The notes: generated by a model not told the origin, from the sequence alone. A stretch of 33,639 bases of DNA from a virus (IMGVR_UViG_2718218449_000004), one strand, 5' to 3'; counted from the stretch's first letter, positions 23,590 through 26,977 are shown. Numbers and translations are program-made.

Positions 23590-24905
23590 CAGTGAAATAC
23601 TACGCCATTCTGACTAATCAGGGCGCGGCACGGCTGGCTAACGCGACGATGCTCGGCAGTAAGCTGAATCTGACGCAAATGGCCGTTGGTGATGCAAATG
23701 GTGTCTTGCCGACACCTGACCCGGCACAGACAAAACTTATTAACCAGAAACGCATCGCGCCGCTGAATCTTCTGAGTGTTGACCCGAACAACCAGAGCCA
23801 GATTATTGCGGAGCAAATCATCCCTGAGAACGAGGGCGGATTCTGGATCCGTGAGATTGGGCTTTATGATGATGAAGGCGTACTCATTGCGGTGGCGAAC
23901 TGCCCGGAAACGTACAAACCGCAGTTACAGGAAGGCAGCGGTCGTACCCAGACTATCCGCATGATTCTGGTTGTCACGAATACCGAAGCCATCACGCTGA
24001 AAATCGACCCGTCGGTGGTACTGGCGACCCGTAAATACGTGGATGATAAAGTCCTGGAATTAAGGCTGTATGTGGATGACCAGATGAGAAACCACATTGC
24101 CGCACAGGATCCTCATACCCAGTATGCGCAGAAACATAATCCGACATTTACCGGAGAACCAAAAGCGCCAACGCCTGCCGCAGGAAATAACACCACGCGG
24201 ATTGCGACCACTGAGTTTGTTCAGACCGCTATTACCGCTCTGATTAACGGCGCGCCAGACACGCTGGACACACTGAAAGAAATTGCCGCGGCCATTAACA
24301 ATGACCCGAAATTCAGCACCACCATTAACAATGCGCTGTCAGGTAAGCAGCCACTGGATGAGACGCTGACTCATTTGAGTGGAAAGGATGTTGCCGGTCT
24401 TCTCGCATACCTTGGTTTGGGAGAAGGTTCGGCATTACCCGTTGGTGTGCCTGTTCCGTGGCCTTCAGCCACTCCGCCGACAGGCTGGCTGAAATGCAAC
24501 GGGGCGGCTTTTTCTGCTGAAGAATACCCGGAACTGGCAAAGGTTTACCCGACAAATAAATTGCCTGATTTACGTGGTGAGTTTATTCGTGGCTGGGATG
24601 ACGGACGTGGAGTGGATAACGGAAGGGGATTATTGACGCTTCAGGACGGTGCGATTGTCAGTCATAACCACTATTGGGGAATCTGGACTTCACGAACTAA
24701 CGACCAGACTCTGGAAAGTTTTACAGGCACCACGATTTTAAAACAAATCACGCCCCTGTCTCCGGCCATTAACTTCGATAATTACCCAATTCCCAACCCG
24801 GCTATTACAGAGGGTGGTGTTGTTGCGGCAACGACTAAACCTGCAGGTGCGAATGAAACACGCCCACGAAATGTCGCTTTTAACTATATTGTGAGGGCTG
24901 CATAA
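23586..24905 (+). CDS. H: Tail fibre protein H: constant N-terminal part plus currently expressed variable C-terminal receptor-binding part
   Basis: 439 aa. N-terminus is P2-H-like; the C-terminal part lies beyond the left crossover site and ends ...RNVAFNYIVRAA, a tail-fibre tip type. Confidence 0.85.
   Translation: MTVKYYAILTNQGAARLANATMLGSKLNLTQMAVGDANGVLPTPDPAQTKLINQKRIAPLNLLSVDPNNQSQIIAEQIIPENEGGFWIREIGLYDDEGVLIAVANCPETYKPQLQEGSGRTQTIRMILVVTNTEAITLKIDPSVVLATRKYVDDKVLELRLYVDDQMRNHIAAQDPHTQYAQKHNPTFTGEPKAPTPAAGNNTTRIATTEFVQTAITALINGAPDTLDTLKEIAAAINNDPKFSTTINNALSGKQPLDETLTHLSGKDVAGLLAYLGLGEGSALPVGVPVPWPSATPPTGWLKCNGAAFSAEEYPELAKVYPTNKLPDLRGEFIRGWDDGRGVDNGRGLLTLQDGAIVSHNHYWGIWTSRTNDQTLESFTGTTILKQITPLSPAINFDNYPIPNPAITEGGVVAATTKPAGANETRPRNVAFNYIVRAA
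24400..24425. repeat. Left inversion crossover site (hix/gix-like 26-bp imperfect palindrome) inside H
   Basis: TTCTCGCATACC-TT-GGTTTGGGAGAA; the right half is the inverted complement of the left half of the site at 26303-26328 (shared 14 bp TTGGTTTGGGAGAA); half-sites fit the TTnTCnnAAACC pattern. Confidence 0.6.
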
Positions 24906-25507
24906 TGAATAACGCAGAATTAAACAGTGAATTAATTGCCACTATGGCAGGAGAAATTACTGTTTATAACTTTGATGTCATGAGTCGGGAATATATTTCA
25001 GCTTCAACTGAATATCTTGCTATTGGTGTCGGCATTCCGGCATATTCCTGTTTAGATGCCCCAGGCGCATACAAAGCTGGTTATGCAATCTGCCGTTCTG
25101 CAGATTTTAACTCATGGGAATATGTGCCAGACCATCGCGGTGAAATCGTCTTTAGCACCGAAACAGGAGAATCAAAAGAAATCACCGCTCCGGGTGATTA
25201 CCCTGATAATACAACCACTATCGCCCCGTTAACGCCATACGATAAATGGGATGGTGAGAAATGGGTGACGGATACCGAAGCACAGCATAGCGCCGCAGTA
25301 GAAGCGGCAGAAACACAACGCCAGTCGCTGATTGATACTGCAATGGCTTCCATTAGTCTGATTCAGCTGAAATTACAGGCCGGACGGAAGCTGACGCAGG
25401 CAGAAACCAACCGACTTAACACGGTGCTGGATTACATTGACGCGGTGACGGCAACAGATACCAGCACCGCGCCGGATGTCATCTGGCCTGAACTGCCGGA
25501 GGCGTAG
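24905..25507 (+). CDS. G: Tail fibre assembly chaperone
   Basis: 200 aa immediately after H, in the P2 gpG position. Confidence 0.8.
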   Translation: MNNAELNSELIATMAGEITVYNFDVMSREYISASTEYLAIGVGIPAYSCLDAPGAYKAGYAICRSADFNSWEYVPDHRGEIVFSTETGESKEITAPGDYPDNTTTIAPLTPYDKWDGEKWVTDTEAQHSAAVEAAETQRQSLIDTAMASISLIQLKLQAGRKLTQAETNRLNTVLDYIDAVTATDTSTAPDVIWPELPEA

Positions 25508-25922
25508 GCCATTCAATATCTGGCGCACTGGCGGTATCGACCAGCTCCAGTGCGTCCAGATAATCCAGCCACAAATTATATTGTGCCAGTTCCTCACCTT
25601 TCAGACGACCAATAGCGGCTTTACCGGGCCATTGCTTACTGTTCATGTATTCGTTGGCCTGGTTAATTAGTAGCTGTCTTTCTGATTCAGTAATTTCAAT
25701 AAGTTCTTCATGCGTGGGTGGAGGAATATCTGCCCACGCAGGCAGCCCATCATCTCCGGCAATACGGATTTTTCCTTGTGGCGGTTCAGCCATAAACTCA
25801 CTGATAATATTTTGATTTACTTCCTTAGCGTCTGATAAATCCCATCCCTCTGATTTATATTTATCAATCATATCCACAGGGAAAAAAGCATTATGCCTTG
25901 CGCTATAAACATATTCGTTCAT
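25479..25922 (-). CDS. Alternative tail fibre assembly chaperone (G', inverted orientation)
   Basis: Minus-strand ORF convergent with G; the track start at 25931 is GTG, so start placed at ATG 25920-25922 (MNEYVYSAR...) with GGGTGA RBS; C-terminus (...DTASAPDIEWPTPP) parallels that of G. Confidence 0.65.
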   Translation of the reverse strand: MNEYVYSARHNAFFPVDMIDKYKSEGWDLSDAKEVNQNIISEFMAEPPQGKIRIAGDDGLPAWADIPPPTHEELIEITESERQLLINQANEYMNSKQWPGKAAIGRLKGEELAQYNLWLDYLDALELVDTASAPDIEWPTPPAVQAR

Positions 25923-25942
25923 ATAAATCACCCTAAATAAAA

Positions 25943-26356
25943 TTACTCACCAACAGCCCACCAACTGTAATTCATCGATACCGTGTCGCTGGTTGATGAC
26001 GTTCTGTAAGCAGAATTAAAGCCGGTTAACGTTGGGCCTTCTGCAGTCATCACGAACCCTCGCCCAGCGCCTAAAGGCGCACCGCCATCACCAGAATGAG
26101 TAAGCATGGCGCAGTCCGCTTTTTTGGGGAAAGGGATGCTGAATGTAATTCTCATTGTTTGCGTCGATAATGTCGGCGTAACCGCACCACGACCATATTG
26201 CAGGATTTTACCGTTGGGTAATTTCATCCATCCATCACCACTGGCAAAAGAGGCCATGTCCGGTATCTGATTTTCCCCTGTCCCCACATCCCGTTTTGCC
26301 GCTTCTCCCAAACCAACGTTTATGAAAATGCAGAAATAACGGGTAACTGGCATCAT
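25943..26356 (-). CDS. Alternative tail-fibre variable C-terminal cassette (Hv'), silent in this orientation
   Basis: Minus-strand ORF whose residues 15-18 (G-L-G-E) are encoded by the right crossover site in the same frame as H; ends ...YSWWAVGE. Confidence 0.55.
   Translation of the reverse strand: MMPVTRYFCIFINVGLGEAAKRDVGTGENQIPDMASFASGDGWMKLPNGKILQYGRGAVTPTLSTQTMRITFSIPFPKKADCAMLTHSGDGGAPLGAGRGFVMTAEGPTLTGFNSAYRTSSTSDTVSMNYSWWAVGE
26303..26328. repeat. Right inversion crossover site (hix/gix-like)
   Basis: TTCTCCCAAACC-AA-CGTTTATGAAAA; central AA is the complement of the central TT of the left site, as required for inversion. Confidence 0.6.
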
Positions 26357-26383
26357 CTCCGGTTTTTATTCAGGGAGATGCTC

Positions 26384-26977
26384 ATGCTTATTGGCTATGT
26401 ACGCGTGTCAACAAATGACCAGAACACGGAATTGCAGCGTAATGCGCTGGAGTGTGCAGGATGTGAGCTGATTTTTGAGGATAAAATCAGCGGCACGAAG
26501 TCCGACCGACCGGGACTGAAAAAACTGCTCAGAACATTATCAGCAGGTGACACTCTGGTAGTCTGGAAGCTGGATAGGCTGGGGCGTAGTATGCGGCATC
26601 TGGTCATTCTGGTTGAGGAACTGCGCGAACGCGGCGTTAATTTTCGCAGCCTGACGGATGCTATTGATACCAGCACGCCGATGGGGCGCTTTTTCTTTCA
26701 TGTGATGGGGGCCCTGGCAGAAATGGAGCGAGAACTCATTGTCGAGCGGACACGCGCCGGACTGGAAGCGGCCAGAGCCAAAGGTCGTATTGGTGGCAGA
26801 CGACCGAAACTCACCACGAGTGAGTGGGAGCAGGTCGGACGGTTGCTGGCTGCGGGGGAATCTCGTCAACGTGTGGCGCTGATTTTTGATATTGGCCTGT
26901 CCACGCTCTATAAAAAATTCCCCTCATCAGCGACAAAGAATAAATTGTGTCATCCCTTAGCCAACCGGGACAAATAG
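26384..26977 (+). CDS. Serine DNA invertase (Gin/Hin/Cin/Pin family)
   Basis: MLIGYVRVSTNDQNTELQRNAL... resolvase/invertase N-terminus with catalytic Ser in YVRVST, and a C-terminal HTH; start at ATG 26384, 6 nt after an AGGGAG RBS (track ORF starts two codons earlier). Confidence 0.9.
   Translation: MLIGYVRVSTNDQNTELQRNALECAGCELIFEDKISGTKSDRPGLKKLLRTLSAGDTLVVWKLDRLGRSMRHLVILVEELRERGVNFRSLTDAIDTSTPMGRFFFHVMGALAEMERELIVERTRAGLEAARAKGRIGGRRPKLTTSEWEQVGRLLAAGESRQRVALIFDIGLSTLYKKFPSSATKNKLCHPLANRDK

Follow-up and report, generated by a model that had tools for sequence, protein, structure and literature searches.

The tail-fibre operon of a P2-like E. coli O157:H7 prophage, apparently a complete myovirus, very probably carries a two-state site-specific inversion switch of the Mu G/P1 C/e14 P type. 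The whole stretch of DNA analysed, 33,639 nucleotides (33.6 kb), is referred to here as the window. Among complete E. coli genomes 78 carried the window's orientation of the segment and 66 the flipped orientation (each counted where a single place matched 80% or more of the query), and many of these were 100% identical. The second orientation that the preliminary description had predicted therefore exists. Switches of this kind are ordinary and well known; the locus has little consequence for basic biology, as the mechanism of serine-invertase fibre switches has been in the textbooks since the 1980s. The features of the locus are as follows, with window coordinates and strand.

23586-24905, plus strand: H ORF, with Phage_tail_fib and Collar domains (Pfam)
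23586-24411, plus strand: H constant part (Hc), about 275 codons, outside the segment; Phage_tail_fib at residues 1-150
24400-24425: left crossover site (pixL-like), inside H, TTCTCGCATACC-TT-GGTTTGGGAGAA; central dinucleotide 24412-24413
24412-26316: invertible segment, 1905 bp; a flip of exactly these coordinates matches real genomes at 100% identity
24414-24905, plus strand: tip A (Hv), the C-terminal ~160 residues of H; Collar at residues 287-334 (Pfam)
24905-25507, plus strand: G, assembly chaperone of tip A, 200 aa; Caudo_TAP, E = 1.3e-32
25479-25931 (ORF) or 25479-25922 (RefSeq CDS, 147 aa), minus strand: G', chaperone of tip B; Caudo_TAP, E = 9e-31
25943-26356, minus strand: Hv' ORF; Gp53-like_C, E = 1e-12; its ATG at 26356 lies beyond the right site
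25943-26314, minus strand: tip B cassette (Hv'), ~120 residues after GLGE, silent in the window
26303-26328: right crossover site (pixR-like), TTCTCCCAAACC-AA-CGTTTATGAAAA; central dinucleotide 26315-26316
26384-26977, plus strand: serine DNA invertase of the Pin/Gin/Cin/Hin family, 197 aa; Resolvase, E = 2.8e-52, plus HTH_7
26405-26468: candidate Fis-dependent recombinational enhancer within the invertase gene, with two G-N13-C cores
26943-26968, plus strand: homologue of the activator-binding site of the P2 pF late promoter, aligned with annotated P2 17555-17583

In the proposed mechanism dimers of the adjacent serine invertase would bind the two 26-bp sites and bring them together in a synapse, probably assembled at a Fis-bound enhancer that lies in the 5' end of the invertase gene itself. 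The enzyme would then cut each site at the central AA/TT, rotate a half-complex by 180 degrees and religate, flipping 24412-26316 and leaving Hc (275 codons) and the late promoter fixed. In orientation 1 Hc would lead into tip A followed by chaperone G, giving a fibre of 439 aa, and in orientation 2 into tip B followed by chaperone G', giving a fibre of 399 aa. A lysogen population would be expected to release virions with two different receptor-binding tips and, by analogy with Mu and P1, the two tips probably confer different host ranges.

The two 26-bp sites lie in inverted orientation, share the core TTGGTTTGGGAGAAG (left site 24400-24425, TTCTCGCATACCTTGGTTTGGGAGAA; right site 26303-26328, TTCTCCCAAACCAACGTTTATGAAAA) and form the longest inverted repeat within 23500-27100. 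Read in the same sense, both have AA as the central dinucleotide and each reads TTCTCCCAAACC-AA-. The positions given in the preliminary description were borne out, as was its assignment of the sites to the hix/gix/pix type, inverted and with matching central dinucleotides; the 14 bp that it had counted as common to the sites were confirmed as a 14-mer, but the full identical core is 15 bp. This 14-mer, TTGGTTTGGGAGAA, has just two occurrences in the 33.6-kb window, one per strand. With 2 mismatches permitted, shuffled sequences averaged 0.31 matches and at least 2 matches were obtained in 4 of 100 shuffles. No third site beyond chance was detected in the 33.6-kb window using half-sites with up to 3 mismatches or the AAACCNNGGTTT core with up to 2 mismatches. 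Comparison with the e14 P segment gave 26/26 identical positions for the right site (e14 right site, L006:3606-3631) and 23/26 for the left site (pixL of e14). The core differs from the published e14 P-segment repeat, TTGGTTTGGGAGAAGG, in the last base only (PMC12529663). The same right site was found in most of ~79 related viral contigs, with its centre 67-68 bp from the invertase start codon, and the partner left site was seen in ~50 of the ~79, where the upstream DNA was long enough. RecA-mediated inversion was rejected, as a 15-bp identical core is generally held to be too short. The R64 shufflon (Rci) is alike in that programmed inversion alters the C-terminus of a surface adhesin; this IncI plasmid system uses a tyrosine recombinase, many sfx sites and multiple segments. 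The locus had initially been called a shufflon, a term that does not apply to a serine recombinase acting on exactly two sites in 33.6 kb, and that reading was rejected in favor of a single two-site switch of the G/P-segment type.

The likely catalyst is the adjacent invertase. Its longest ORF starts at 26378, two codons before the RefSeq start at 26384, which is most likely the correct start as it gives the family's usual MLIGY N-terminus. The 197-aa protein was 86% identical to PinE, 76% to Gin and 78% to the D6 Cin-like protein, and the best solved structures were those of Gin (3UJ3 and 4M6F, E = 1e-93). The earlier designation as Gin/Hin type thus holds at the level of a Gin/Pin-family enzyme, but the closest relative is e14 Pin and not Gin or Hin. 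The enzyme was intact, as had been claimed, with no inactivating change, and S9, R7, D64-R65, R68 and other residues were invariant with Gin, Cin and Pin. Relatives differed by 5-7% in DNA but by only ~2% in protein and, judged by this comparison, the gene is under purifying selection. A 13-residue C-terminal extension relative to PinE results from the gene reading into the P2 pF promoter region. A simple scan detected no sigma-70-like promoter in the stretch from the right site to the start codon.

It is unlikely that the segment is flipped instead by a Pin-family invertase acting in trans from another locus of the O157:H7 chromosome, with the adjacent gene dispensable or only one contributor. 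Precedents for cross-action include Fels-2, a P2-like prophage of Salmonella. Its Fin flips the Salmonella H segment; the e14 P segment is likewise inverted by PinQ, which belongs to a different cryptic prophage, and Mu G by PinE (PMC12529663). The window's sites are almost identical to those of e14, and most of the matching genomes carried further partial matches to the query elsewhere (2-5 places per record), as this explanation would allow. However, the adjacent invertase is intact, is under purifying selection and is held at a fixed distance from the right site in most relatives, which is the arrangement of a cis-encoded enzyme. A further, improbable reading is that the O157:H7 Pin-family invertases act on each other's segments, coupling the prophages into one phase-variable network.

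Fis/enhancer-dependent invertases need host Fis and negative supercoiling, and inversion by the adjacent invertase probably requires Fis and an enhancer. In the hin enhancer the Fis sites are 48 bp apart centre to centre (PMC3798978). The expected enhancer is a pair of Fis sites spaced by ~48 bp, within the 5' part of the invertase gene and roughly 100 bp away from the closer crossover site. The window's gene has two G-N13-C cores (26405-26419 and 26454-26468) whose centres are 49 bp apart by our own assignment and which lie ~97 bp from the centre of the right site, making a Fis enhancer at 26405-26468 a plausible candidate. From Mu gin to the window's invertase gene the blocks containing the candidate cores were almost invariant, silent positions included. 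When two blocks 16 codons apart were ranked by synonymous conservation they came 1st-4th among 158 placements, with comparable conservation elsewhere in the gene. Residues reported to be specific to Fis-dependent invertases contact Fis or the enhancer (in Hin, Q151/R154/L155 and the basic helix-B residues K47/R48/K51; PMC3798978), and their equivalents, Q150/R153/L154 and K46/K47/R50, were present in the window's enzyme.

The segment carries tip A with chaperone G on the plus strand and chaperone G' with tip B on the minus strand. Tip A is the tip expressed in the window's orientation, and the G start codon overlaps the H stop (TAATG). The beginning of tip A was 92% identical in DNA to e14 stfE, G was ~88% identical to e14 tfaE, and tip A was 98.7% identical to the cassette of phage pro483. 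G' is silent in the window's orientation. It had been described as an inverted duplicate of G, and it is an inverted chaperone gene, but it is a distant paralogue rather than a duplicate, with just 34% identity to G across the C-terminal 80 residues. The inverted alternative tip (Hv') was recognized as had been proposed, as a minus-strand ORF with a Gp53-like_C domain. The core is translated as L-G-L-G-E in both tips, and an in-silico flip of 24412-26316 produced an uninterrupted in-frame H ORF of 399 aa, in agreement with the claim that the sites share a reading frame (G-L-G-E) and that inversion fuses Hc to the alternative tip. The fusion of Hc to tip B was intact in E. coli EC4115 and also in ORF31 of pro483, annotated there as a 1200-nt tail-protein gene. 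The two tips belong to unrelated families, Collar for tip A and Gp53-like_C for tip B, making different receptors for the two tips likely.

A role for the silent tip in the lysogen was also considered. By analogy with e14 StfE2, for which receptor masking against other phages has been claimed (PMC12529663), a flip could toggle virion host range plus a short tip protein made in the lysogen from the ATGATG at 26356-26351 to mask outer-membrane receptors, which we consider improbable. It is very unlikely that the main role of inversion lies in the lysogen, changing the truncated tip protein (ORF 25943-26356) that would mask receptors against other phages. The architecture is e14-like in this respect, with an ATG outside the right site reading across the site into the silent tip, and the ATGATG and its reading frame were kept in all of ~70 relatives. 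However, a simple sigma-70 scan detected no promoter-like site on the minus strand upstream of 26356, the GGAG is poorly spaced, at 0-3 nt from the ATGs, and the 14-codon leader (26356-26315, minus strand) had no third-position bias among the ~70 relatives, as judged by eye and uncounted. The P2 morphogenetic genes examined in the prophage all had open reading frames, so the explanation by virion tips is sufficient.

The two states were read from separate assemblies. Many complete O157:H7 genomes contained the flipped sequence at 100% identity across its full 3515 nt, and ~13-14 genomes in each orientation reached the maximal bit score. TW14359 and EC4115 showed 0/3515 nt differences once the segment was un-flipped, differing in orientation alone, and this difference would reflect recent switching. 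These two strains have each been described as spinach-outbreak isolates. It is hardly credible that the switch is a fossil whose orientations in the databases are old polymorphisms or assembly artefacts, with no inversion today: although all of the evidence for switching comes from comparing assemblies, base-identical sequences occur in both states, a repeat of 15-26 bp is too short to cause misassembly of finished genomes, and the window's invertase has no defect. Locked copies do exist, as the invertase of a close relative, phage 'P2' from O157:H43 strain T22, loses similarity after about residue 129 and is without the DNA-binding domain. A single orientation or an inactivated invertase had been named beforehand as results that would count against a working switch; both orientations were found, in separate assemblies, and the invertase was free of inactivating changes. 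The locus is a structural polymorphism that switches fast within a major pathogen lineage and, as TW14359 and EC4115 differ by orientation alone in 3.5 kb, outbreak comparisons should mask or disregard it. The flipped state is also an annotation trap that is mishandled by automatic annotation. In EC4115 the intact 399-aa fibre was split into a pseudogene fragment and one separate gene. Our literature search found no paper on inversion in this O157:H7 prophage itself.

Among known systems, the two-state switch shares its layout with the P segment and PinE of e14, a cryptic prophage of E. coli K-12, in which a fibre tip and chaperone are likewise followed by an inverted chaperone and tip, with the invertase last. 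Homology of tip A to stfE and of G to tfaE extends over parts at 88-92% DNA identity, whereas stfP and tfaP of e14 differ from tip B and G', and e14 is a defective lambdoid remnant rather than an apparently complete P2-like prophage. In the Mu G/Gin and P1/D6 C/Cin systems, too, the N-terminal part of the fibre is constant and lies outside the segment, which contains two opposed variable sets of tip and chaperone; the sites are 26 bp long, a serine invertase is adjacent, and the enzymes are 76-78% identical to that of the window. However, the gix sites differ in sequence and have a central GA, the Mu G segment is ~3 kb as compared to 1.9 kb, and the tips of Mu, P1 and D6 are unrelated to those of the window at the DNA level. 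In P1 and, by its annotation, in D6 the invertase gene sits on the opposite side, upstream of the invertible segment. The same module was found 97-99% identical and flipped in phage pro483, whose annotation has a 'DNA invertase' between FI and the fibre genes. In both pro483 and Citrobacter phage Omnitron the opposite strand was matched by query positions 827-2734/2739 (window 24412-26319/26324). Inversion phase variation has been shown by sequencing in two P2-like prophages of EPEC E2348/69, with a PCR check of e14 (PMC4272514). One of these EPEC loci has three inverted repeats and four variants, unlike the two sites and two variants of the window. Taken together, the related loci make up a set of exchangeable tip cassettes, all joined at a single conserved 15-bp core, and this set could serve host-range engineering in P2-type phages or tailocins.

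The module occupies the Z/fun position between G and FI, as had been proposed; in the P2 annotation fun(Z) lies directly upstream of the pF promoter and FI. The pF-site homologue is contained in the final codons of the invertase gene; here, on its right-hand side, the inserted module joins the P2 backbone. Rfam and tRNA scans detected no RNA genes in the window. A weak hairpin with a T-run was observed at 26345-26364 and was conserved in relatives.

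The two sites at 24400-24425 and 26303-26328 were confirmed to share a common core, and their interpretation as the ends of an invertible tail-fibre switch was supported. They form the longest inverted repeat of the region. The 14 bp that the preliminary description gave as common to both is a 14-mer with only two occurrences in the window, on opposite strands, but the identical core is actually 15 bp (TTGGTTTGGGAGAAG). Read in the same sense, one site is TTCTCCCAAACC-AA-GGTATGCGAGAA and the other TTCTCCCAAACC-AA-CGTTTATGAAAA, with 12-bp half-sites flanking a 2-bp crossover; the equal central dinucleotide, AA in both, fits the hix/gix architecture that had been claimed. 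By sequence alone the cut could fall anywhere in the 15 identical bases, and we infer the central AA/TT from the family. Comparison with the P segment of e14, the cryptic E. coli K-12 prophage, showed every base of the right site to be the same and 3 of 26 positions of the left site to differ, and the core matches the repeat already described for e14 (PMC12529663). It is this match, not shuffling, that excludes a chance origin. Most of 79 related viral contigs carried the right site at a constant 67-68 bp from site centre to invertase start codon, and about 50 of the 79 also had a left-hand partner, 1.4-3.4 kb upstream. No third crossover site was found in the window, and with only two sites and a serine recombinase the earlier label 'shufflon' was rejected as a misnomer.

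Differently composed sites flank the segment in the IMG/VR loci L026, L029, L038, L070, L071 and L054. In several of these the left site reverse-complements the entire right site exactly or almost exactly, outer half included, and in L054 the H-side outer half was found on the invertase-adjacent site. Such sites look like the outcome of earlier exchanges in which non-equivalent sites or cassettes took part.

The genes of the module carried the following domains.
H, tail-fibre gene: Phage_tail_fib and Collar
G, chaperone of tip A: Caudo_TAP
G', chaperone with tip B, minus strand: Caudo_TAP
Hv', tip B, minus strand: Gp53-like_C
Invertase: Resolvase and HTH_7

A Caudo_TAP gene does lie inverted on the minus strand, but G' is not the duplicate of G that had been described, with 34% identity limited to the last 80 residues. 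The inverted alternative tip was borne out, and the Gp53-like_C reading frame joins H in frame after a flip. Across relatives the conserved core is bordered on its segment side by at least five different sequences, evidently from a pool of tip cassettes that is swapped at this junction over evolutionary time. The architecture equals that of e14 StfE2, for which receptor masking on the lysogen side has been claimed; a similar role here is disfavored, as a promoter was looked for and none was found and the leader lacked coding signal.

The enzyme proved to be a serine invertase, as proposed, with 86% identity to PinE of e14, 76% to Gin and 78% to the Cin-like enzyme of phage D6. Its start is most likely 26384, the RefSeq start, giving MLIGYVRVST with Ser9 as the nucleophile as in Gin. 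All catalytic-domain residues common to PinE, Gin and the D6 enzyme were kept, and the best solved relatives were the Gin structures 3UJ3 and 4M6F (E = 1e-93). Hin Q151, R154 and L155 and basic positions 47, 48 and 51 are reported as hallmarks of Fis/enhancer-dependent invertases (PMC3798978); by alignment these correspond to Q150, R153 and L154, all present, and to K46, K47 and R50. Close relatives differed by 5-7% in DNA and about 2% in protein, indicating that the invertase is under purifying selection. Catalysis in trans by another Pin homologue is possible but not needed as an explanation.

Between the right site and this start (26329-26383) the motif TGGCATCAT was near-invariant among about 70 relatives including Mu (TGGCATGAT in Mu, TGACATCAT in L085). 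On the minus strand it provides the ATGATG that starts a mechanical ORF into the silent tip. It also overlaps 26345-26364, where a weak hairpin and its T-run lie. The motif could be part of the promoter or leader of the invertase.

In hin, the centers of two Fis sites are 47-48 bp apart and the nearest hix site is about 99-100 bp away; AT-rich ATTTA and TAATG lie between the two Fis sites (PMC3798978). Two candidate cores were located near the 5' end of the invertase gene, within the first 200 bp where the preliminary description had proposed to look for an enhancer.
26405-26419: candidate G-N13-C core 1, GTGTCAACAAATGAC
26454-26468: candidate G-N13-C core 2, GTGCAGGATGTGAGC

Their centers are 49 bp apart, one off the hin spacing by the assignment made here, the first lies about 97 bp from the right-site center, and AATTG and TAATG lie between them. 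Among 25 non-redundant homologues, from Mu gin through the window invertase, TCAACAAATGACCA and GCAGGATG.GA were near-invariant, silent positions included. Synonymous diversity was lowest in the gene for two blocks 16 codons apart placed at codons 8-10 (ranks 1, 2 and 4 of 158 placements), with further dips elsewhere in the gene. This conservation is suggestive, not proof, of a Fis enhancer.

Segment 24412-26316 was inverted in silico and the flipped sequence was searched against 5,426 complete E. coli genomes. The flip placed H in frame with the other tip (399 residues), and many O157:H7 strains proved to contain the artificial sequence, full length (3515 nt) and 100.0% identical. At 80% or more single-place coverage the flipped orientation was present in 66 genomes and the window orientation in 78, and these counts do not overlap since an opposite-state genome reaches at most 54%. 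Region 23586-27100 was 100% identical in prophages of many complete O157:H7 genomes, and strain TW14359 differed from the window by one base. TW14359 has the window orientation and EC4115 the flipped one, with 0 of 3515 positions different once un-flipped, and each was described as a spinach-outbreak isolate (PMC4321836). The in-frame fusion of H to tip B that was predicted earlier for inversion, 399 aa long, is intact in EC4115. Together these results mean that inversion of the segment happens in nature, at the sites predicted and within a very short time. The occurrence of identical sequences in the two states contradicts a fossil switch that no longer inverts, and for RecA-mediated inversion the repeat is too short.

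The EC4115 fusion (NC_011353, L002:1001-2200) consists of window 23586-24411 plus flipped 26316-25943. RefSeq splits it into a pseudogene fragment (1001-1390, 'missing C-terminus') and a separate 'gp53-like domain-containing protein'. It translates as a single unbroken ORF, so automatic annotation mis-handles the flipped state there.

In phage pro483 (NC_028943) the module is flipped and 97-99% identical, and its annotation upstream of FI lists a 1200-nt H-tip B gene, both chaperones, the silent tip A and a 'DNA invertase'. The module is also present in a close relative, phage 'P2' from O157:H43 strain T22 (NC_041848), where similarity of the invertase (L003:4495-4989, annotated 164 aa) ends after about residue 129 and the DNA-binding helix-turn-helix domain is missing. 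This copy has probably undergone a frameshift, and its switch is presumably locked. Inversion was demonstrated experimentally for e14 and for the tail-fibre loci of two P2-like EPEC prophages (PMC4272514), and a systematic survey placed 'tail fiber', 'tail fiber assembly' and 'phage tail protein I' in the group of annotations with the strongest enrichment at programmed inversions (PMC9881135). Our literature search found no paper on this O157:H7 locus, which adds a member to a thoroughly known kind of fibre switch.

Gene content and order of the window match those of P2.
1888-2901, minus strand: integrase, P2-like layout
Repressor C position: helix-turn-helix protein, P2-like layout
After the repressor-position gene: replication gene A, P2-like layout
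Baseplate V, W, J, I, then H, G: P2 order
After the fibre module: FI, FII, E/E', T, U, D, P2 order
26943-26968: homologue of the P2 pF activator-binding site, by alignment with the annotated P2 site
About 27011-27013: homologue of the P2 pF transcription start, by alignment with P2

The module does occupy the P2 Z/fun position, since in P2 itself the interval from G to the pF promoter/FI holds fun(Z). P2 homology picks up again at about 26943, within the final 11 or so invertase codons, and the TAG stop falls in the conserved pF promoter sequence GGGACAAATAGCC. The invertase has a 13-residue C-terminal tail absent from PinE because the gene end reads into pF sequence, and this pF-homologous end marks the right-hand junction of the inserted module with the P2 backbone.

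The host flank gene (1-900, minus strand) encodes a YegS-like lipid kinase (DAGK_cat and YegS_C). The integrase follows, so the two presumably flank the attachment site; scanning found no tRNA gene in the window. Immediately downstream of replication gene A, three plus-strand ORFs at 7839-11528 (407, 170 and 656 aa) match LmuA (alpha/beta-hydrolase and ABC-3C CTD8 domain), LmuC (MC4) and LmuB (SMC-like ATPase) and constitute a Lamassu/ABC-3C anti-phage system, in the position of tin/old in P2.
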